19,289 bases of DNA from Promethearchaeota archaeon (lineage in GTDB: Archaea; Asgardarchaeota; Lokiarchaeia; Sigyniarchaeales; SOKP01): assembly GCA_030599585.1 (NCBI GenBank), contig JAUVNS010000033.1:1-19289 (forward strand), in the 5' to 3' direction. Position numbers and translations under genes: made by a program. This document shows positions 2,847 to 19,289 of the stretch, piece after piece. The notes under the pieces were generated by a model. That model had not been told where the DNA came from, did no database searches, and saw only the letters and a program-made list of their open reading frames with translations. Each line of letters starts with the position of its first letter. The stretch's first letter is position 1.

Positions 2847-3326
2847 TTATATCGTTTTAGATATATAATAAGGTGTTTTTTTAACTTCTTTCTTTTTATA
2901 ATGGTTCCCAAATAGATATCCTAATATTACCCCAACTATCGCATACATTATTCCGTAATTCATTAATAAGAATAATAGATATTGTAAAAGGAGAAGAACA
3001 TCAGCTCCATATACTGGTATAAAATAAATAATCCAATCAACGAAACCTATTAATAATAATGATAAAATTGAACTTACCAATCCAACAATTACGCCTGTTT
3101 TAATGTGCGATTGGTATTCATTTCTATATTTAAATGTGAAAAAGAGTCCAATACAGCTTCCTATAACTAAAATTATATCACCTATAAAGAAAAATCCCGT
3201 GGGGAGAATCAAGAACAAAACATTAGTTATTAAGACACTTAATAAAACTCCAATTAGCATATTATATCTTTGGGCAAATCCAGAATCAGTCTCAGCAACC
3301 ATGCACTTTTTCACCAAGTTTTTCAA
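2847..3326 (-). CDS. Hypothetical integral membrane protein (about 4 TM helices), probably co-transcribed with the thiolase
   Basis: 159 aa with four hydrophobic Gly-containing stretches and a basic C-terminal tail; 30 nt gap to the thiolase. Start uncertain (TTG or an internal ATG). Confidence 0.75.
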   Translation of the reverse strand: MKNLVKKCMVAETDSGFAQRYNMLIGVLLSVLITNVLFLILPTGFFFIGDIILVIGSCIGLFFTFKYRNEYQSHIKTGVIVGLVSSILSLLLIGFVDWIIYFIPVYGADVLLLLQYLLFLLMNYGIMYAIVGVILGYLFGNHYKKKEVKKTPYYISKTI

Positions 3327-3605: not shown

Positions 3606-4559
3606 GTGAAATTAAAAATGGGAATGTTAAGTGGAAAAGTCGCTATAATAACCGGTGCTGGTCGTGGTGTTGGTCGAGAAGAAGCTTTAGCTATGGCTAA
3701 AGAGGGTTGTAATTTGATCGTAAATGATCTCGGAGCGGGAGCCGCTGATTTAGATGAAGAGATGAAAATTGCTGATGAGGTTGTCGAAGAATGTAAAAAG
3801 ATAGGAGTAAAAGCGATTGCAAATTACGATTCTGTGGTCGATTACAACAAAACAAAAAGTATGATAGACCAGGCGATCTCAGTATTTGGCAAATTAAATA
3901 TTGTCGTGAATAACGCAGGGATTTTACGCGATAGAATGATTTTTAACATGACGGAAGCTGAATTTGACGATGTTATCGCAGTTCATTTAAAAGGAACCTT
4001 TAACTTAACCCGACATGCGGCAGTTTATTTTAGAAAAATGGGAAAAGAAAATCCTAATTTAAAGAATTTTGGTAGAATTATTAACACAGCATCCGACTCT
4101 GGATTGTATGGGAATGTAGGGCAATCAAACTATGGTGCTGCTAAATCGGGTATTGCTACTTTCTCAGTAATCGTAGCTCGTGAATTAGTTAAATATGCTA
4201 CTGTAAATTGTGTCGTTCCAAGCGCTAGAACTCGTATGACTACTGATTTAGCTCCAAATTTAGCTGAAAAGATGAAATCTCAAACTAAAAAAGGTTTTGA
4301 TGTTTTTAATCCGTCTCATTTCGCTCCTTTAGTCGTATACCTTGCATCCGATGCCGCTAAAAAAATTAACGGAGAAGTTTTTAAAGCTATAGGTGACAAG
4401 GTTTGGGTTTATCGTGGATGGCGCGCTGTTAAAATGATAAATAACAATGGAATTCCTTTTACACCTCAAGAATTGGACGATCGAGTTAAATCAGAACTAA
4501 TGAAAGATTTACCCTCTAAAATCGAGGGTGCTGTATCTCATGACACCTTACTAAGTTAA
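3606..4559 (+). CDS. Short-chain dehydrogenase/reductase, MFE-2/HSD17B4-like 3-hydroxyacyl-CoA dehydrogenase subtype
   Basis: TGAGRGVG, IVNDLG, NNAGILRDRM, VHLKG and GNVGQSNYGAAK (YxxxK), all typical of the MFE-2 N-domain-like SDRs. The start may be the ATG at 3618. Confidence 0.92.
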   Translation: MKLKMGMLSGKVAIITGAGRGVGREEALAMAKEGCNLIVNDLGAGAADLDEEMKIADEVVEECKKIGVKAIANYDSVVDYNKTKSMIDQAISVFGKLNIVVNNAGILRDRMIFNMTEAEFDDVIAVHLKGTFNLTRHAAVYFRKMGKENPNLKNFGRIINTASDSGLYGNVGQSNYGAAKSGIATFSVIVARELVKYATVNCVVPSARTRMTTDLAPNLAEKMKSQTKKGFDVFNPSHFAPLVVYLASDAAKKINGEVFKAIGDKVWVYRGWRAVKMINNNGIPFTPQELDDRVKSELMKDLPSKIEGAVSHDTLLS

Positions 4560-4668
4560 TATTTTAAAATTTGATAAAATATTATTAACATTTCGAAATA
4601 ACATTTAATAAAATTAAATTAGCTCGAATAATTTTTTTATTTAAAATTAAGTTTAAAATCAATGTATT

Positions 4669-5628
4669 ATGGCAGAATCTAAAGCCCTAATTTTCCAGAT
4701 TCAAAAAATGTCCACTGAAGATGGACCCGGAATTAGAACAACGGTTTTTTTTAAACAGTGTCCTTTAAAATGTATTTGGTGCCATAATCCCGAATCTATT
4801 CTAAAAAAAAAGCAATTAGAGTGGTTCAAACATAAATGTATAGGTTGTAAGATCTGCATTGAAACATGTCAGAAGGGAGCATTAACCCTCGATGAGGATG
4901 GGATGCATATCGACAGAGATAAATGTGATAGTTGTGGATTGTGCTCAGAAGAATGTCCTAGTACTGCTTTACATATGTTTGGCGAATTATGGGAGTTAGA
5001 GGATTTGTATTACGAAATTCAAAAAGATAAAGTCTACTACACCCAATCTCATGGAGGTATTACAGTTTCAGGAGGCGAACCTACGCTCCAATCTGATTTT
5101 TTATTAGATTTTTTGAAGAAATGTAAAGAAAATGGAATTTCAACAGCGTTAGACACGTGTGGATACGCTTCCAAGAATATTTATAATAAAATTTTGCCCT
5201 TAATTGACTTAATACTTCTCGATATTAAAGAAATTAATTCCGAAAAGCATGAAAAATACACAGGAGTTCCAAATACCCTTATTTTAGAAAATGCAATCTG
5301 GATTTCGAAGTATGTTAAAAAAAATAATAAGAAACTTTGGATTCGAACTCCAATTATCCCAAATTATACTGCTACAGCGGAAAATATAAATGGAATTGGA
5401 GACTTTATTGTTAACAAATTACACAACATTCCAGAAAGATGGGACTTGCTGTCGTTCAATAACTTATGCACGGCGAAATATGAAAGATTAGACATTGAGT
5501 GGTCTCTGAAAGACTTCCCTCTAATTTCTTCAGATGAAATGGACAAACTTATTGAAGTTGGTAAGAAATTAGGCGTTAAGAATGTTCAATGGTCAGGTCT
5601 AACTAGGAAACAAGATTTGGAGAAATAA
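4669..5628 (+). CDS. Glycyl-radical enzyme activating protein (radical SAM, with 2x[4Fe-4S] ferredoxin insert)
   Basis: DGPGIRTTVF, CPLKCIWCHNPE (CxxxCxxC), ferredoxin motifs CIGCKICIETC and CDSCGLCSEEC, GGITVSGGEP, DTCG. Confidence 0.96.
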   Translation: MAESKALIFQIQKMSTEDGPGIRTTVFFKQCPLKCIWCHNPESILKKKQLEWFKHKCIGCKICIETCQKGALTLDEDGMHIDRDKCDSCGLCSEECPSTALHMFGELWELEDLYYEIQKDKVYYTQSHGGITVSGGEPTLQSDFLLDFLKKCKENGISTALDTCGYASKNIYNKILPLIDLILLDIKEINSEKHEKYTGVPNTLILENAIWISKYVKKNNKKLWIRTPIIPNYTATAENINGIGDFIVNKLHNIPERWDLLSFNNLCTAKYERLDIEWSLKDFPLISSDEMDKLIEVGKKLGVKNVQWSGLTRKQDLEK

Positions 5629-5702
5629 TTTTAAATTTTATATTTTAATCTGCTTTATTTTAAATAGATTAAATTATTAAGTTAATTTTGAGTTGTTATT
5701 TT

Positions 5703-5707
5703 GGTGA
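5703..5707 (+). promoter_or_regulatory. Shine-Dalgarno (GGTGA) for the glycyl radical enzyme
   Basis: GGTGA 8 nt upstream of ATG 5716; archaeal-type SD. Confidence 0.6.
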
Positions 5708-5715
5708 TCTAAAAA

Positions 5716-8220
5716 ATGAGTAAGAGTAATGAAATTGATGCTAAGGAAAAAGGAGCAACAAAATTTCCTATTGCTGAGCCTCACGATCTTTCCCCTCGTT
5801 CTAAATGGCTTAGAGATTATTATTTCAAGGGTTTAGCGCGAGAATGGAACAATCAAATAGTATCATTTACAACAGGAACTGATTGGGATATTGTTTTTCA
5901 TGAGGGAGATTATTATATTAATCCTGAAGCACATTATTATATTCAGATACTCGGAAAAAATGATCGAGGTGCATTTGCTTCATCTTTTAGATCAATGGCT
6001 ATAGCAGTCGAATTAATAAAAAATTTTTGGGAGTTATCTTTACCAGAACGTAGAGTAACCTTTCTGGAAAAGGTTATGCTTGACTATATTCCTCAAGAAA
6101 TTATTTCTGAAAATGATTTAATCGCAGGTGGGAGATTTAATACGCAATTAAGCAAATGTTTTAATAAGGAAGAAGCGAAAGAATATTGGAAAAGGAATAT
6201 AGGAAATCGAGAAGCTGTATTTAAATATCACAAATCTGGTTTCGGAAATTTAGGAGCAACACCAGGTCATATTATACCTGATTATGAAACTGTTGTTAAA
6301 AAAGGATTTAAATATATCTATGAGAAAGCTAAGAAGACATACGATAACCTTACCAACGAGGAAAAAAATGGACCAAAAGGAGAAGAACTTAGGGCTATTA
6401 TGATCTCAACGGAAATTCCAAAGAAATTAGCAAAAAAGTACGCTGAAGAATGTCGAAGATTAAAAGATGAGGCTACTACGCCTGAAAGCGTTGAAAAACT
6501 TGAGCAAATGGCAAATAATTTAGAAAGAGTGCCATGGGAACCTGCTGAGACCTTTTGGCAAGGCGTTCAAGCAGTTTGGCTCACCCACATGTTAGTAATG
6601 GCTGAAGAATCATACCCCGGAGCAGGCCTCTCTTTTGGAAGAATTGATCAATACCTATGGGATTTGTATAAAAAGGATGTTATTGAGCAAGAACTATTCA
6701 CAAAAGAATTTGCAAAAGATATTTTAGGCAGTTTCTGGTTTCATTGTAATACTGTGTATGATGCAATGATTAATGTTGGTAATCAGGGAATATTATCAGG
6801 ATTCGGTCAGATTATAACACTTTCTGGATGTGGTCCAAATGGAGAGGATTTAACAAATGAACTTACATACACTATCCTTGAAGTCATAGATTCATGGTAT
6901 CCAAGTCTTGAGCCTAAACCTAACGTAAGAATTCATAGAAATTCTCCAGATAAACTTTTGGATATATTAGTAAATATGATTGCAAGATCTCAAGGCGCTC
7001 CTTTCATTCTAAATTTTGACGAGAGAAGCATTGCTGGAATGGTTAAAGAAGGTATACCTGAAGAAGAAGCTTGGAATTATGGAGTAGTAGGTTGCCTAGA
7101 AAATACAATGCAAGGTAACGATAGAAGTGGAACTGTGAATTGTAATCTTAATTTAACTAAATCTATAGAATTAACACTATGGAATGGCAAAAATATGCCT
7201 GGAAATGATATAGCTACTAAATCTGGCGAAGATATCGGACCAGCAACAGGAGATACTGAAAACTTTCAAACATGGGAAGAGTTTTATAACGCTTGGAAAG
7301 AACAAATTAAATTTATGATTAAATATACTGTGGATGTAAATAATTTATGCGAAGAACTTCGAGGTGATTTTATTCGCACTCCATACTTGTCATCGATTGT
7401 TCGAGGATGTATAGAGCAAGGTTTAGATATTACAAATGGAGGTCCTGAATTAAGATTCGTAACGGTTGAAGGAGTGGGATTTGCTACAACAGTAGATTCA
7501 TTACTATCAATTAAGAAGCTTGTATATGAGGATAAGAAATATACAATGGCACAAATAAAAGATTCCATAATGAACGACTTCAAAAGAAACGAAGTAATGC
7601 AAGCTTATTTAATGAATAAAGCTCCTAAATATGGGAACGATGAAGATGATGCTGATGAATTTTCTAAAATGGTAATGGAAACATGGGCTGAAGAATGTTG
7701 GAGATATAAAACACCAACTAACTTTCAATATCGTCCGGGAATGTTATCATGGAACTATTGGGCTGGAGCAGATGCTGGTTTTACAATAGCAACACCAAAT
7801 GGACGGAATAAGGGATCATTTCTATCAAATGCAATCTGTCCCACCAATGGAGTAGATATAAAAGGACCTACAGCAGTTACTAATTCTGTTGGGAAAGTAT
7901 TAGGAGGAAAAACTGAATCTGGAGAATACATTAATTGTTTACCCAATGGAGCAAGCCATACAATTACCTTTAATCCATCTATAATTAAAGATCCAGAGCA
8001 TAAAGAGAAATTTAAAGCTTATTTAAGAGGTTATATAGAAAACGGAGGTACTGCCCTACAAATCAATATGCTCGATGGTGAAATGCTAAAAGATGCTCAA
8101 AAACATCCCGAAAATTATAAAAATCTTTTAGTAAGAATAACAGGCTATAACGCATACTTCACCACCATTGGTAGAGAATTACAGGATGAGATAATCGCAA
8201 GAGAATCTCATAGAATCTAG
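5716..8220 (+). CDS. Glycyl radical enzyme (PFL2/eliminase-like family), substrate unknown
   Basis: SFGRIDQYL, thiyl loop VGCLE (C460), APKYGND, ATPNGR, glycyl loop LLVRITGYNAYF (G810). It has a single Cys, so it is not a true PFL (which has CC). Confidence 0.95.
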   Translation: MSKSNEIDAKEKGATKFPIAEPHDLSPRSKWLRDYYFKGLAREWNNQIVSFTTGTDWDIVFHEGDYYINPEAHYYIQILGKNDRGAFASSFRSMAIAVELIKNFWELSLPERRVTFLEKVMLDYIPQEIISENDLIAGGRFNTQLSKCFNKEEAKEYWKRNIGNREAVFKYHKSGFGNLGATPGHIIPDYETVVKKGFKYIYEKAKKTYDNLTNEEKNGPKGEELRAIMISTEIPKKLAKKYAEECRRLKDEATTPESVEKLEQMANNLERVPWEPAETFWQGVQAVWLTHMLVMAEESYPGAGLSFGRIDQYLWDLYKKDVIEQELFTKEFAKDILGSFWFHCNTVYDAMINVGNQGILSGFGQIITLSGCGPNGEDLTNELTYTILEVIDSWYPSLEPKPNVRIHRNSPDKLLDILVNMIARSQGAPFILNFDERSIAGMVKEGIPEEEAWNYGVVGCLENTMQGNDRSGTVNCNLNLTKSIELTLWNGKNMPGNDIATKSGEDIGPATGDTENFQTWEEFYNAWKEQIKFMIKYTVDVNNLCEELRGDFIRTPYLSSIVRGCIEQGLDITNGGPELRFVTVEGVGFATTVDSLLSIKKLVYEDKKYTMAQIKDSIMNDFKRNEVMQAYLMNKAPKYGNDEDDADEFSKMVMETWAEECWRYKTPTNFQYRPGMLSWNYWAGADAGFTIATPNGRNKGSFLSNAICPTNGVDIKGPTAVTNSVGKVLGGKTESGEYINCLPNGASHTITFNPSIIKDPEHKEKFKAYLRGYIENGGTALQINMLDGEMLKDAQKHPENYKNLLVRITGYNAYFTTIGRELQDEIIARESHRI

Positions 8221-8349
8221 AAATTTATATTTATTAACCAATTATTATTAAAACCAAAATAAAATACCATAAGAAGTAAAAAATCAACAACACCATCTTG
8301 TTAATAATTTCCATTAAAAAATTATATACTATAAAATGCGTGATAAAAT

Positions 8350-9228
8350 ATGAGTGAAGATAATACTAAATTTGGGTGGAATTCTGAATTTTCAGATGAT
8401 CTTATTGAATTTACTCAACCAGACATAATGGTGAAATTAGTTTCTACAATAGATTCAAGAGGTTGGCCCCATCTTACAATAATTACATCAAATCGGGCGA
8501 AAAAAAAAGATCAAATAGTATGGGGGCAATTTTTTGCAGGCACGAGTAAAGAATATGTCCAAAAAGATCCAAAACAAGGAATTTTTTATATGACTGCAGA
8601 AGCTCCATTTAAGTTCATCCAAGTTAAAGCTGATTTTACTCACACTGAAAACGAAGGAGAAGACCTTGAATATTTCAATCAATCAGCTTTTTTTAGATAT
8701 TTCACGTATATTAACGTTTATAAAGTTTTTTATAACCATGTTGTTGGTGTAACTCCTATTAGAGATTTACCACCTGGTAACATCCCAAGAAAAATTGTTA
8801 AAGCTATTACTAAAGAAGCAGCAACTAATCTAGAGCAAAGGATGTTAAATGTAATAGGATATAAACTATTTACAAATAAAATAGGTGTTAGAGCAATTGC
8901 ATATATCGATCCTTCCGATGGATATCCTATAATTATTCCACATCTTCAACTAAATGCTGTTGATCATAATAGACTCTATTTTCCATTGACGGCATTAAAA
9001 GAAGATTTTCTTCAGATTCCTGTAAATTCTAAAGTTGCTGTAATTGGTGCTAATTTCGATATGGCAAGCCAAGTAGTGAAAGGAACATTTACGGGGATTC
9101 AAAAATTCGAAGAAACTGAATATGGTTTAATCGATATTGAAGAAATATATAATAGTTCTCCCCCAATAATAGGAAAAATTTACCCCAAAATTGAATCCGT
9201 TCCTAAGGTTACTGACTTTCACTTGTAA
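8350..9228 (+). CDS. Tandem-domain pyridoxamine 5'-phosphate oxidase-like (split beta-barrel, FMN/F420-binding) protein
   Basis: Two copies of the PNPOx-like start motif: KLVSTIDSRGWPHLT and RAIAYIDPSDGYPIII. Each is followed by a QVK(A/G)xFT strand (QVKADFT / QVVKGTFT) and a late (V/I)F/YN motif. Confidence 0.7.
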   Translation: MSEDNTKFGWNSEFSDDLIEFTQPDIMVKLVSTIDSRGWPHLTIITSNRAKKKDQIVWGQFFAGTSKEYVQKDPKQGIFYMTAEAPFKFIQVKADFTHTENEGEDLEYFNQSAFFRYFTYINVYKVFYNHVVGVTPIRDLPPGNIPRKIVKAITKEAATNLEQRMLNVIGYKLFTNKIGVRAIAYIDPSDGYPIIIPHLQLNAVDHNRLYFPLTALKEDFLQIPVNSKVAVIGANFDMASQVVKGTFTGIQKFEETEYGLIDIEEIYNSSPPIIGKIYPKIESVPKVTDFHL

Positions 9229-9348
9229 TTATTTTTCATTTTCGTATTTTATTAAATAAAATTTTGAAAATTTTATTACTGATTTTGTTTTTTCTAAACT
9301 AAGTGAATAATTATTATTTATTACTAAATTTAGGAGATTCATATTATT

Positions 9349-10881
9349 ATGAGCAAAAAAATGAATGTACTTTTTATTATTACGGATCAGCAACGCGCTG
9401 ATATGATGGGTTGTTATGGCAATCAAATAATTAAGACACCAAATTTAGATAGATTTGCTAAAGAAAATGTAAGGTTTTCTAACGCTTACTGCGTATGTCC
9501 TATGTGTATGCCTAATAGAGCCACGATGTTAACTGGTTATTATCCTAACGTCCATGGCGTACGAAGTAATGGGATAAATTTACCGGAAGATGTGCCGACA
9601 ATAACTCAAACGCTTGCAAAAAGAGGGTACCATACCGTCAATGTAGGCAAAACTCATTACAACACGTGGACGCCAAGATACGATCCAAAAACAAAATCGG
9701 CAGAGGATTTCCAAGATTGGAGAACAAAAAACCCTAAAGGTAATTACCTAACGCATGATAATTTTCCAATCCCCTATTATGGGTTTGAGGAAGTCGATTT
9801 AGTTGTAGGACATGGTAACGCATGTATCGGACACTATCTTGAATGGATAGAAGAAAGAGATCCTAAACTTGCGAAAAAAATTGTAGATGAGTATTCAAAT
9901 AAAGTACCTTGTCTCGAAATTTTTTATGAAAGCTGGGTTCCTATAGAGCTTTATAATACAACGTACATTCAAAATAATACAATCTCTTTCTTAGAACGAT
10001 ACTCTAAAGGAATCTATGGAGAAAAACCTTTCTTTTTACATTGCTCTTTTCCTGATCCCCATCAACCAGTCTCACCACCTGGAAGGTATAGAGATATGTA
10101 TAAACCAGAGGACATGGTACTTCCTGATAATTTCCATAATATAAAAAACTTATATAAACACCCTTATTTAAAAAAGCATTTAGAAAAGCCTCCCGCTAGA
10201 GACGCATTATTACGTGAAGAAACAGAAGAAAATATAAGAAAGTTTATCGCTCTCAGTTATGGTTCTGTTTCTTTAATCGATCACGCTGTAGGTCAAATTT
10301 TAGCTTCGTTGGAAAAGTTAGGATTAGCAGATAATACGATGGTGATTTTCACCTCAGATCACGGAGATTACTTGGGAGACCACAGTTTAATATTAAAAGG
10401 AATCTCTCCCTTTAACGGCACTCTACAAGTACCTTTAATTTGGCGGGTTCCTGGCGTTACTAAATCAGCAGTTTCTGATGCGTTAATAAGTTCTGTAGAT
10501 ATACCTAAAACTATTCTTGAGTTATTAGATATCAAGGAAAAACATAGACCACCGGGAATGCAAGGCTATGACATGACACCGGTTTTGAAGGATCCTACAA
10601 TTGATTTACGGGATTCTATTCTAATAACAGAAGACGAAGAAGTAGGTCCGCGAGGACCCTTATTTACGAGAATAGTTCATTTGATCACTAAAGATTTTAA
10701 ATTAACTAAATATGCTGAGCTACCCGGATATGGAGACATTTTTGATCGAAAGAACGACAAGGCCGAATTAAATAATTTATGGGAAAAGGATCAAGAGTTA
10801 AGACTAAAACTATTGGACAAGATGTTCCACGAATATTCCATGACTCGAAGTAGGTTTCCAAAAAGAGATTCAGGATTTTAA
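9349..10881 (+). CDS. Cys-type (formylglycine) sulfatase-family hydrolase, choline-sulfatase/arylsulfatase-like
   Basis: NVLFIITDQQR, CMPNRATMLTG (CxPxR, C53), VGKTH, SFPDPH, FTSDHG, LKG. AGGAG SD upstream; no signal peptide seen. Confidence 0.93.
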   Translation: MSKKMNVLFIITDQQRADMMGCYGNQIIKTPNLDRFAKENVRFSNAYCVCPMCMPNRATMLTGYYPNVHGVRSNGINLPEDVPTITQTLAKRGYHTVNVGKTHYNTWTPRYDPKTKSAEDFQDWRTKNPKGNYLTHDNFPIPYYGFEEVDLVVGHGNACIGHYLEWIEERDPKLAKKIVDEYSNKVPCLEIFYESWVPIELYNTTYIQNNTISFLERYSKGIYGEKPFFLHCSFPDPHQPVSPPGRYRDMYKPEDMVLPDNFHNIKNLYKHPYLKKHLEKPPARDALLREETEENIRKFIALSYGSVSLIDHAVGQILASLEKLGLADNTMVIFTSDHGDYLGDHSLILKGISPFNGTLQVPLIWRVPGVTKSAVSDALISSVDIPKTILELLDIKEKHRPPGMQGYDMTPVLKDPTIDLRDSILITEDEEVGPRGPLFTRIVHLITKDFKLTKYAELPGYGDIFDRKNDKAELNNLWEKDQELRLKLLDKMFHEYSMTRSRFPKRDSGF

Positions 10882-10913
10882 ATTATAGAAAAAAATGAAA
10901 ACTCTGAAAAAAA

Positions 10914-11804
10914 ATGAAGTGGAAAACGAAAATAACTCAGTGTTTTGGAATAGAGTATCCCCTCGTAATGGGAGCTTTTGGTGGATGGGGTAAATCTGAG
11001 TTTGCATCTACTTTTTCAAATTCAGGGGGCTTAGGAATCATTGCTGCATTGAACTTTCCAAATCTGGAAGATTTTCGGAAAGATATACAAAAGATGAAAC
11101 AATTGACTGACAAACCTTTTGGAATTAATCTCTCGTTGCCGCATCATATCTTAAATGATACCGAGGAAGGTAAAAAAACAAAAAAAAGGTATTTAGATTA
11201 CATCGATATCGCCCTCAATGAAAATTGTAGCATCTTTACAACTTCAGGATATAAAGCTTCTTTCATTGGGAAAAGAGTTCATGAAGCAGGTGGATTATGG
11301 TTCCACAAATGCGTTTTAATCAAGCATGCTATTTCAGCAGAAGAAGAAGGTGTAGATGGAGTTACATTAGTAGGTTTAGAAGGAACTGGGTTTAAAAATC
11401 CACAAACAAACTCTACACTGGTAAATATAACCTTAGCAAGAAAAATGCTCAAAATTCCGATCATTGCTGCTGGTGGGATTGGTGATTCAAGAGGTTTTTT
11501 AAGCGCTCTGGCAATGGGAGCTGATGCGGTATGTTTAGGTACAGCCTTAATGATCACTCGTGAATGTCCCGTACCAGAAAGAATTAAGAAAAAATGGCTC
11601 AATTTAGATATCTATGATGAGCAATTTCATGAAAAAATATACAAATATAATGTAAAGAATTTTATGGCGCCTTCGACGGCAATAGGACACCATAATGAGA
11701 TAATCCCTATGAAAACCTTAGTCGAGGAAATGATTAAAAATGCAGAGAATATATTGCTTTCTTGGGGATTTGATAATAACGAAATCAATACACTTCACTT
11801 TTAG
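10914..11804 (+). CDS. Nitronate monooxygenase / FabK-like FMN-dependent oxidoreductase family protein
   Basis: FGIEYPLVMG, GGLGII, TDKPFGINL, IPIIAAGGIGD, LAMGADAVCLGT. GLEGTGF occupies the position of the usual GxEAGGH. Confidence 0.9.
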   Translation: MKWKTKITQCFGIEYPLVMGAFGGWGKSEFASTFSNSGGLGIIAALNFPNLEDFRKDIQKMKQLTDKPFGINLSLPHHILNDTEEGKKTKKRYLDYIDIALNENCSIFTTSGYKASFIGKRVHEAGGLWFHKCVLIKHAISAEEEGVDGVTLVGLEGTGFKNPQTNSTLVNITLARKMLKIPIIAAGGIGDSRGFLSALAMGADAVCLGTALMITRECPVPERIKKKWLNLDIYDEQFHEKIYKYNVKNFMAPSTAIGHHNEIIPMKTLVEEMIKNAENILLSWGFDNNEINTLHF

Positions 11805-11837: not shown

Positions 11838-11999
11838 ATGAAAAGCGATAAGAAAAAAGAAAAATCCAAGCTTGACGACGAAGAATTAGAGAAGATTTTC
11901 GAGTCAACATGGAAAAATTGGGAATCCCGTAGAAAGTGTGAGCAGACTCATACACCAGAGTATATTAAAAGAAAAAATAAAAAGAATCACACTAAATAA
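11838..11999 (+). CDS. Small Lys/Glu-rich hypothetical protein (53 aa)
   Basis: Hand translation: MKSDKKKEKSKLDDEELEKIFESTWKNWESRRKCEQTHTPEYIKRKNKKNHTK*. ATG 33 nt after the NMO stop, with AGGTTGG upstream; fills the otherwise empty gap. Confidence 0.5.
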   Translation: MKSDKKKEKSKLDDEELEKIFESTWKNWESRRKCEQTHTPEYIKRKNKKNHTK

Positions 12000-16639: not shown

Positions 16640-16967
16640 GACACATGAGAATTGGGGCTGACGGTGAACTTGATTCGCTGAGGAACCTCGCCTCACATTT
16701 CCAAACTAGGAGTAGATAACTATTACGGTGAAAACCGTATTTTAGCAACTGAAACGACACTGCCCTTTTACGCATATTAATGACTTGGGATTAAGCCAGA
16801 GAAATTGTAATCGGGAACGGTTGGAACGAGCTAAAACCTGGGTGCAAGGCCAAATGAAAGCGATGAGGATTTGGAACGAGCTTTAGGTAGGCCGCTTAGT
16901 TTGATGCCCCGACCATTATTTGGTGACAAATAACGGAACAAAAAGGCGGGTATAAATCTCAGGTGTC
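16640..16967 (+). ncRNA. rnpB: RNase P RNA, archaeal type A
   Basis: Folded by hand. P1 GACACaUGAGA/UCUCAgGUGUC; P2 GGGGC/GCCCC; P3 CGGUGAA/UUCGCUG; CR-I GAGGAACCUCGCCU pairing with CR-V ACAAAAAGGCGGGUA (P4, bulged U); P6 UUCCAAA/UUUGGAA; P7 CUAGG/CCUGG; short P8; P9 UACGGU-GAAA-ACCGUA; P10/11 UUUUAGC/GCUAAAA; CR-II GCAACUGAAAC; GGUGCAAGGCCAAA; P15 GGCC/GGCC; P16 AAAGC/GCUUU; P19 UUAUUUG-GUGA-CAAAUAA; no P18. Confidence 0.96.
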
Positions 16968-18366: not shown

Positions 18367-19289
18367 ATGAGGAGTAAGAGAATAATATCAATCTTTACGG
18401 TATTTATTGCTTGTTTACTTTTAGGTAGCAGTTATTCCTCTAATAATCCTTACATAAATAATACGATGGTCGGAGATATATCTCCAAAAACATCTGCAGT
18501 ACCAATATTTTCAATTGATTCGCCATCTAATTACTCTTTATTCGGTAAACTAGCCACGAATTATTCATTGACAATAACAGAAGGATTAGGTAATTTTACA
18601 TGGTATGAATTTTTAGGAGTAGGAGCAAATTCAACTCCAATAGAATTAGATGGGACTCCAAATGAAAATATCGAAGAGCCTTTTAATCAAACCATGTGGG
18701 ATTCTTTATCTAACGGAACTGCTACTGTTAGGTTTTATGTGAATAATTCCTGGGGTGAATTAGGATATTTAGATGCGATAATAAGGATTGATATAATTGA
18801 TCCAATAATCAATCTGATTGCCCCCACTGGTGGTTTTTTCAATTCTACACCCCCAGACTTTAGGATCGAAATTTCAGATCCAAATTTGAATACAACATGG
18901 TACACTTTAAACACAAATCAAACAAAACATATTTTTTCTTCTAATGGAACTATAGATGGTTGGTCGTATTTAAATGATGAATTAGTAACGATTAAATTCT
19001 ACGCTAATGATTCTGTGAGTAATGAGAATTCTACTTCAGTCCAAGTTACAAAAGATGTTGTTAACCCTACAGGCTCTATTGCAATTAATGATGGTGATAC
19101 ATGGTCAAACTCTACCAGTGTGACGCTGTCATTGACGTACGACGATGCCACATCTGGAGTGCTTGAAGTGCGATACAGTAACGATGGTAGCTCGTGGACT
19201 GCCTGGGAGGCTCCAGGTGCAACTAGAGCTTGGAATTTAGAAGTTGGCGATGGTACTACTACGGTCTATTATGAAGTTAAAGATAACGC
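18367..19289 (+). CDS. Secreted/surface glycoprotein with tandem Ig-like beta-sandwich repeats (partial, runs off the right edge)
   Basis: Not in the ORF track; open for 307 codons from ATG 18367. N-terminus MRSKRIISIFTVFIACLLLGSS (signal peptide), then ISPKTSA. Repeats read P..I.SP...TWY...W..L.(N)G..T(V/I)(R/K)FY(V/A)N(N/D)S...KD...P. I counted 15 N-x-S/T sequons. Confidence 0.88.
   Translation, partial: MRSKRIISIFTVFIACLLLGSSYSSNNPYINNTMVGDISPKTSAVPIFSIDSPSNYSLFGKLATNYSLTITEGLGNFTWYEFLGVGANSTPIELDGTPNENIEEPFNQTMWDSLSNGTATVRFYVNNSWGELGYLDAIIRIDIIDPIINLIAPTGGFFNSTPPDFRIEISDPNLNTTWYTLNTNQTKHIFSSNGTIDGWSYLNDELVTIKFYANDSVSNENSTSVQVTKDVVNPTGSIAINDGDTWSNSTSVTLSLTYDDATSGVLEVRYSNDGSSWTAWEAPGATRAWNLEVGDGTTTVYYEVKDN

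Follow-up and report, generated by a model that had tools for sequence, protein, structure and literature searches.

A glycyl radical enzyme, its activase and a tandem split-barrel protein form a conserved cassette in Asgard archaea and anaerobic bacteria

Glycyl radical enzymes (GREs) characterised as C-O, C-N or C-S eliminases, together with the new isomerases, all possess a CxE motif, the glutamate of which is bonded to the substrate hydroxyl; in the glycerol dehydratase reaction, the departing hydroxyl group receives its proton from His164 (PMC13450708). The same review, from June 2026, states that the PFL-like GREs characterised so far are all bacterial, that no archaeal one has an assigned function, and that whole GRE clades lack validation. 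PflD/PFL2 of Archaeoglobus fulgidus (2f3o), a single-cysteine enzyme the function of which is debated, is the only archaeal PFL-like GRE to have been studied structurally, and PflD-like GREs of Asgard archaea have been called alkyl- or benzylsuccinate synthases (Ass/Bss) on the basis of a single cysteine and ∼30% identity (PMC8163825). Here, a GRE locus at positions 3606-11804 of a 19,289-nucleotide stretch of Promethearchaeota DNA (GenBank assembly GCA_030599585.1, contig JAUVNS010000033.1) was analysed. This stretch, referred to below as the window, is the entire 19.3-kb contig of a 4.85-Mb metagenome-assembled genome (MAG) of an Asgard archaeon (Promethearchaeota/Lokiarchaeia), with a GC content of ∼33%. 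Genes were assigned from open reading frame (ORF) calls and Pfam/NCBIfam profile matches. A preliminary description, made from the sequence of the window, had proposed six co-directional genes as a candidate catabolic system; the real unit is smaller, and consists of the GRE, a radical SAM activase and a 292-residue tandem split β-barrel protein of the PNPOx/HupZ-like type, designated SB2.

The evidence for this unit comes from the neighbourhoods of related GRE genes. A homologue scan with one genome per species returned 79 loci, and the neighbourhood set comprised 71 loci (45 Asgard and 26 bacterial; L numbers denote individual loci), in which the conservation of neighbours was examined by tblastn and clustering of all adjoining ORFs. 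The activase and SB2, each found in 58 of the 71 loci, were the only neighbours of the GRE gene to be conserved across domains. Among the 55 loci with at least 4.5 kb of sequence downstream of the GRE gene, 54 contain SB2, namely 33 of the 34 from Asgard archaea and all 21 from bacteria, and it is present also in all eight of the additional loci from other Asgard families. The preliminary description had named a conserved activase and split-barrel neighbourhood beside GRE orthologues as the support to be sought, and this was borne out across Asgard archaea and five bacterial phyla. Its observation that the activase lies directly 5' of the GRE holds for the window (activase, 4669-5628; GRE, 5716-8220; SB2, 8350-9228; all on the + strand), but most relatives have the genes in the order GRE-activase-SB2. 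The two most distant SB2 representatives that were checked, with 23% identity, also occur in the order GRE-activase-SB2(-GntR), and in these two loci the activase and SB2 genes overlap by 4-11 nt. SB2 adjoins the GRE gene also where the activase is displaced or absent (L026, L030, L064, L036, L037, L065, L079, L092 and L093), is single-copy in a genome with five GREs and, taken as a marker of the cassette, occurs in ∼70% of the sampled genomes of this Lokiarchaeal family. A GntR/FCD regulator lies beside the cassette in 22 of the 26 bacterial loci; in an analysis of enriched neighbours around these loci, which covered 107 proteins and 144 Pfam families, none was found in more than three.

A distant form of the cassette was observed in the Asgard family f11 (L089:5015-11722, L090 and L091), with identities of 45-46% for the GRE and 25-27% for SB2, where it is followed on the same strand by genes for a GNAT acetyltransferase, an ACT/HTH protein and an MFS_1 transporter. 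The presence of MFS and GNAT genes near both the window and f11 cassettes was considered as a possible shared feature and rejected as chance, the GNAT proteins being unrelated (E 0.23) and the MFS proteins only 28% identical.

The GRE of the window, an 834-residue protein, matches PF02901 with 425.5 bits and PF01228 with 79.4 bits, and has the PFL-like barrel, glycyl radical domain, glycyl loop, catalytic cysteine and nearby activase of the GRE superfamily. The activase itself scores 318 bits against TIGR02494 (cut-off 174) and has a ferredoxin-like two-cluster insert, with Radical_SAM and Fer4 matches at residues 55-103. Identity of the GRE to other Asgard members is 63-94%, and identities of 47-55% over the full length were found with proteins from Desulfobacterales, Thermodesulfobacteriota, Anaerolineales, Spirochaetota, Clostridia and Izemoplasma, with rumen and gut MAGs among the Clostridia; sediment, rumen and gut anaerobes are among the carriers. 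Within the family identity is at least 45%, and the next matches outside it drop directly to ∼30%, and reach at most ∼32%. In a quick maximum-likelihood tree, the family and the paralogues from the same genome lie on either side of a long branch (length 1.98, SH-aLRT 100). The family is large: two database searches each scored more than 3,000 GRE-superfamily proteins, and all 240 of the matches listed were at least 63% identical to the query. Equivalog models scored well below their cut-offs, with HypD the highest at 392 bits (cut-off 1100), followed by HpsG (381 versus 1000), HpfG (361 versus 1000), CutC (340 versus 1050), indoleacetate decarboxylase (260 versus 1100), HPA decarboxylase (200 versus 1150) and the PFL model TIGR01255 (100 versus 994); the glycerol/propanediol dehydratase subfamily model TIGR01774 (PFL2-3) gave 441 bits against a cut-off of 678. 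The identity gap, the long branch and these scores bear out the isolated cluster without a characterised member that the preliminary description had named as support to be sought.

Four further GREs are encoded in the same genome (L002-L005, on contigs C20, C11, C32 and C26), with identities of 28-32% and cysteine loops of the form GCVEP or GCVG; one of these paralogues has the glycyl loop KVGGY, one has GCVG without the glutamate, and one is 994 residues long. A Thermodesulfobacteriota MAG (L055:1-22469) has a group of four GRE genes in the space of 22 kb, including one of the present family and one that encodes 1014 residues. A tree of 40 family members places the bacteria in a single clade (SH-aLRT 100) with the Lokiarchaeial clade as its sister, and a second Asgard clade (families f4, f6 and f11) branches outside both. 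With the long outgroup branches, this topology no more than hints that the family arose in archaea and was transferred once to bacteria. The activase of the window is 86-89% identical to those of L023, L024 and L072, the GREs of which are only 72-74% identical to that of the window, whereas the GRE and SB2 are 85-91% and 76-88% identical, respectively, to those of loci L006-L018, where the activases are only ∼70% identical. These mosaic identities suggest recombination between two cassette types.

Inspection of the GRE revealed the glycyl loop R807-I-T-G810-Y, a cysteine loop, V-V-G-C460-L-E462-N-T, that contains a single cysteine, and a histidine at position 185. In 32 members from archaea and bacteria, approximately 200 positions do not vary, among them R807-I-T-G810-Y, G459, C460-L461-E462, H185, R470 and R673. 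The invariant C460-L461-E462 is the CxE motif of the 1,2-eliminase/isomerase class of GREs, and His185 corresponds in pairwise alignment to His164 of glycerol dehydratase. In the same kind of alignment, His281, Ser282 and Asp447 of glycerol dehydratase are replaced by Ala303, Gly304 and Val474, Tyr339 is deleted, and Asp278 of HypD is replaced by Gly302. The top relatives of solved structure, at 260-313 bits and ∼24-31% identity, are glycerol dehydratase, A. fulgidus PFL2, IseG, HypD and CutC, with the alignments beginning only at residue ∼183 of the GRE. A full-length AlphaFold2 (AF2) model of the GRE (pLDDT 83) is matched best by eliminases (TM 0.75-0.80, 22-26% identity), with the X-succinate synthases placed below them.

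The best match in both sequence (313 bits) and fold (TM 0.75-0.80) is with the glycerol/1,2-propanediol dehydratases (1r8w, 5i2g), with which the system shares the ten-stranded GRE barrel, the glycine loop, the CxE motif, the His164 equivalent and a long-form activase. However, identity is only ∼24-31%, the substrate residues are changed, GCLENT is present instead of GCVEP, no microcompartment or aldehyde-processing genes accompany the cassette, and a split-barrel partner appears to be obligate. A. fulgidus PflD/PFL2 is the second-best match (300 bits), but with ∼26-30% identity it belongs to another family. The pairing of HypD with pyrroline-5-carboxylate (P5C) reductase has a similar two-step logic, in which radical dehydration is followed by the action of a product reductase; the GRE nevertheless falls far short of the HypD cut-off and lacks the HypD aspartate, and its partner is a tandem split barrel as opposed to ProC, although some databases mislabel members of the family as HypD. 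YbiW/PflD, which opens the ring of 1,5-anhydro-hexitol-6-phosphate, and HplG also resemble the system in applying CxE chemistry to a hydroxylated, anionic substrate, and sugar-type neighbours (PfkB kinase, GH38 and MFS_2) occur in some of the Asgard loci. In contrast, these enzymes score 233-260 bits with ∼22-23% structural identity, no aldolase or PTS context is present here, and no SB2-type partner is known in those systems. Precedent for a GRE with a constant, family-specific extra protein is provided by 4-hydroxyphenylacetate decarboxylase (γ subunit) and benzylsuccinate synthase (β and γ subunits), but these subunits are small Fe-S proteins, whereas SB2 is a 292-residue duplicated PNPOx-like barrel for which a complex with the GRE is putative. 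Unlike the present cassette, none of the GRE systems listed in PMC13450708 has a split-barrel partner, and full-text literature searches found no description of a GRE paired with a split-barrel or PNPOx/FMN-binding protein.

The designation of the 292-residue protein as a double split barrel, made in the preliminary description, holds as a predicted fold. Two β-rich modules are seen in the AF2 model (pLDDT 85.7), and structure comparison by Foldseek (E 2e-6) and VIA-align matched residues 9-141 with the FMN-binding split barrels Swol_0183 (3in6; Z 13.2), HupZ (Z 12.9) and Desulfovibrio vulgaris FMN-binding protein (Z 11.5), and residues 167-270 with KtzT (Z 7.6). PF01243 is matched by 27 of 33 SB2 relatives, with a best E of 3.4e-9. 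The family is tiny: a search of 1.84 billion proteins, without a length limit, gave 224 representatives, almost all of which have 260-300 residues. It has no conserved cysteines, and none of the best 150 of the 224 representatives is fused to a GRE, an activase or any other protein. Prediction of a complex between residues 127-834 of the GRE and SB2 gave a score of 0.03 (mark 0.32), which counts neither for nor against a complex.

The explanation that is favoured, with modest confidence, is that the GRE, activase and SB2 constitute a new GRE system of the eliminase/isomerase type with an obligate flavoprotein-like partner, to which a sulfatase and an NMO-like enzyme have been recruited in this genome. 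Judging from the motifs, the activase would place a glycyl radical on Gly810, from where it would move to Cys460, and the thiyl radical so formed would take a hydrogen from a carbon that bears or adjoins a hydroxyl group. This hydroxyl would be deprotonated by Glu462 of the CxE motif and the oxygen leaving group protonated by His185, with cleavage of a C-O bond, either by dehydration or by opening of an ether or ring, giving rise to a carbonyl product. SB2, most likely a flavin protein that partners the GRE itself rather than the activase, would then reduce or isomerise the reactive product, or else serve as a catalytic accessory subunit. In loci with an attached sulfatase, the substrate would probably arrive in sulfated form and be desulfated first. 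The sequences indicate that the substrate is probably both hydroxylated and anionic. The invariant Arg470 and Arg673, positioned near the cysteine loop and on the strand that carries the sulfonate-binding arginine of C-S lyases, suggest a negative charge, as does the bacterial regulator, which is of the carboxylate-sensing type. A bolder and quite unlikely extension would be that this is the first two-component glycyl radical system to require a flavin-binding tandem split barrel for catalysis, for example in radical cleavage of a C-O bond (ether or ring) coupled to immediate reduction by the flavin, perhaps with a C-glycoside or anhydro-sugar-like cofactor intermediate in Lokiarchaeia.

Several observations weigh against the favoured explanation. 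The bacterial loci supply no transporter or downstream enzyme that would constrain the chemistry, and many of the Asgard loci are interrelated, such that their common synteny is not independent evidence. The active-site mapping derives from pairwise alignments as opposed to a liganded structure, and is correspondingly provisional, while the AT-rich spacers of 87-129 nt in the window may contain separate promoters. With regard to SB2, the copy in the window has no Pfam match at E ≤0.001 and no NCBIfam match, the family profile detects solved split-barrel chains only at E ∼0.03, and the modelled fold would be compatible with flavin, F420, heme or no cofactor at all, F420 and heme being bound by this fold in other families.

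The main rival explanation, considered unlikely, holds that SB2 is dedicated to the activase, as its electron donor or activation factor, comparable to flavodoxin for PFL-AE. GRE activases do depend on a reductant of low potential, a part played in E. coli by flavodoxin (PMC13450708). The usual gene order, GRE-activase-SB2, and the overlap between the activase stop and SB2 start in bacteria are in keeping with such a role, as is the presence among the near folds of the small, electron-carrier-like FMN-binding protein of D. vulgaris (Z 11.5, as above). Conversely, SB2 keeps its place next to the GRE in loci whose activase is encoded elsewhere, the four other GREs of the same genome operate without it, and no characterised GRE system is known to need a private reductant. 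It is the retention of SB2 at the GRE when the activase is displaced, and the presence of one SB2 against five GREs, that led to SB2 being read as a partner in the GRE reaction and not as a general reductant of activases.

A second alternative, which we regard as very unlikely, is that all six genes, together with a thiolase, encode a single catabolic pathway, the substrate of which would be a sulfate or phospho ester, for instance an ether lipid or the headgroup of a lipid. The six genes on the + strand between 3606 and 11804 were confirmed by the ORF calls, with gaps of 109, 87, 129, 120 and 32 nt, and their co-directionality and short gaps are what such a pathway would predict. However, the spacers between the genes have a very high AT content with runs of T, for which reason a single transcript of all six genes is not to be assumed, and the only tight pair is that of the sulfatase and NMO-like genes (32 nt). 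The first gene of the six (3606-4559) encodes an SDR oxidoreductase (adh_short, 118.8 bits; PRK07791, 322.7 bits versus a cut-off of 373), L039, the closest relative (94% identical), being the only other locus with a homologue of it next to the GRE, while thiolase genes are near the cassette in only four of the 71 loci, on the opposite strand. Neither is therefore counted in the system, and the SDR is probably a neighbour outside it. With the NMO-like gene near the cassette in no more than eight of the 71 loci, the idea of six genes as one conserved system does not survive.

The sulfatase and the NMO-like gene do recur with the cassette, and in this respect the six-gene explanation retains some force. 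The sulfatase (9349-10881, + strand) matches PF00884 with 176.1 bits, in addition to SGSH_C, and contains the motifs CMPNRATMLTG and SDHG of a type I (formylglycine) sulfatase; an anaerobic sulfatase maturase (anSME) is encoded elsewhere in the genome (398.6 bits versus a cut-off of 349). No signal-like segment was found at the N-terminus, and from its sequence the protein is an intact, cytoplasmic, Cys-type sulfatase. It reaches no equivalog cut-off (arylsulfatase, 236 versus 481). The preliminary expectation of a conserved sulfatase neighbour stood in part: a sulfatase is near the cassette in 11 of the 71 loci (nine Asgard and two Spirochaetia) and absent from the other 60. The arrangement takes at least four forms across two domains of life, with the sulfatase directly 5' of the GRE, in the order sulfatase-NMO-GRE, in the order SB2-sulfatase-NMO, or, in Spirochaetia, downstream. 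Given ten sulfatases in the 4.85-Mb genome, adjacency by chance would be expected at ∼3%. The NMO-like gene (10914-11804, + strand) encodes an NMO/FabK-like FMN oxidoreductase that matches PF03060 with 129 bits and scores 125 bits against the FabK equivalog TIGR03151 (cut-off 453), and its orthologues, with 68-94% identity, accompany the sulfatase either upstream (L010 and L029) or downstream (L038, L039 and the window) of the cassette. The sulfatase and its NMO-like companion thus appear to be real but optional, lineage-specific accessories, bearing in mind that related Asgard loci are not independent.

Other optional neighbours in Asgard loci include MFS_2 transporters, an amidohydrolase, a GH38 mannosidase with a PfkB kinase, SCP2, 3-hydroxyacyl-CoA dehydrogenase and a molybdopterin oxidoreductase. 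A few loci have the thiolase, 3-hydroxyacyl-CoA dehydrogenase or SCP2 nearby, as a lipid pathway might, but the remaining accessories are of the carbohydrate type (GH38, PfkB and MFS_2), and bacteria have only GntR and the three core genes. The proposed ether-lipid or lipid-headgroup substrate is consequently unsupported, the accessories being of the carbohydrate type, the sulfatase included, with a few of the β-oxidation type; the mixture leans towards carbohydrates and names no substrate.

A role for the cassette in tetrahydromethanopterin synthesis, involving radical opening of the ribofuranosyl ring of an arylamine C-riboside followed by flavin reduction, was also considered and is judged highly improbable. 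It has its origin in the Asgard synteny, which resembles a gene cluster for tetrahydromethanopterin biosynthesis: the cassette lies between DUF1464/dihydropteroate-synthase-like genes and a same-strand DUF447 gene in ∼26 of the 45 Asgard loci (DUF1464 in 26, DUF447 in 22), with dihydroneopterin aldolase and a gene of the GHMP kinase family, to which β-RFAP synthase belongs, just beyond DUF447. DUF447, too, adopts the FMN-binding split-barrel fold (MTH_863, Z 7.5), and the opening of cyclic ethers is known for GRE isomerases (YbiW/PflD). In the genome of the window, however, DUF447 and DUF1464 are adjacent on another contig that is devoid of the cassette, and three near-complete Loki genomes without the GRE family retain DUF1464. 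The common synteny may, moreover, descend from a single insertion, and the cassette is widespread under GntR in Clostridia, Spirochaetota, Izemoplasma and Anaerolineales, bacterial carrier groups which are not known to make methanopterin. In loci L006-L034 and others (e.g. L008:1-22502) the cluster also contains CofH/MqnC-like radical SAM genes and RibD_C, often with rubrerythrin directly upstream.

It is extremely improbable that the GRE is a fumarate-adding alkyl- or benzylsuccinate synthase, a function that has been put forward for the PflD-like GREs found in Hermodarchaeota and Lokiarchaeota. The single cysteine, ∼30% identity to AssA/BssA and similarity to A. fulgidus PflD, on which that assignment was based (PMC8163825), all apply here, and MAGs labelled Hermodarchaeota carry this GRE family. 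Eliminases nonetheless score 260-313 bits, against 199 for MasD and 156 for TutD/BSS, the fold too is nearer to the eliminases, the CxE glutamate and the dehydratase histidine are invariant, and genes for small Fe-S β and γ subunits are not conserved among the neighbours of the 71 loci. Identification as pyruvate formate-lyase can hardly be credited: the names given in the source annotations are 'pyruvate formate lyase family protein' and 'formate C-acetyltransferase', in line with most database names and with Asgard reconstructions, one of which, for a Promethearchaeota, includes formate production by PFL (10.1101/2025.03.11.642519), but the loop has Gly459-Cys460 in place of a Cys-Cys pair, the TIGR01255 score is 100 bits, as given above, and E. 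coli PFL aligns only to the C-terminal 200 residues, at 53.5 bits.

Profile scans of the window detected no genes for microcompartment shells, aldehyde or alcohol dehydrogenases, P5C reductase, PTS components or small Fe-S subunits, which agrees with the preliminary description. Elsewhere in the window, an archaeal RNase P RNA was located at 16642-16965 (+ strand; RF00373, 130 bits versus a gathering score of 84), which confirms that the contig is archaeal; relatives bearing the name Promethearchaeota point to the same origin. A lysine-rich ORF of 53 residues (11838-11999, + strand) occupies part of the 361-nt gap between the NMO-like and H+-pyrophosphatase genes. Two further ORFs have no family assignment, namely one of 159 residues at 2847-3326 (- strand), which has a homologue only in L039, and one of 307 residues at 18367-19287 (+ strand), which is open at the contig end.

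The GRE-activase-SB2 cassette is a real, widely distributed and uncharacterised GRE system, the GRE family of which is one of the clades that await validation. With respect to the metabolism of Asgard archaea, the motif, score and neighbourhood data argue against the labels of PFL, with its implication of formate for syntrophy, and of Ass/Bss, with its implication of alkane or aromatic activation, in metabolic reconstructions. Among characterised GREs, nothing corresponds to such a strict pairing with a split-barrel protein of its own. For enzymologists, the cassette represents a defined three-protein system, and the bacterial GntR/FCD regulator provides a handle on its substrate.

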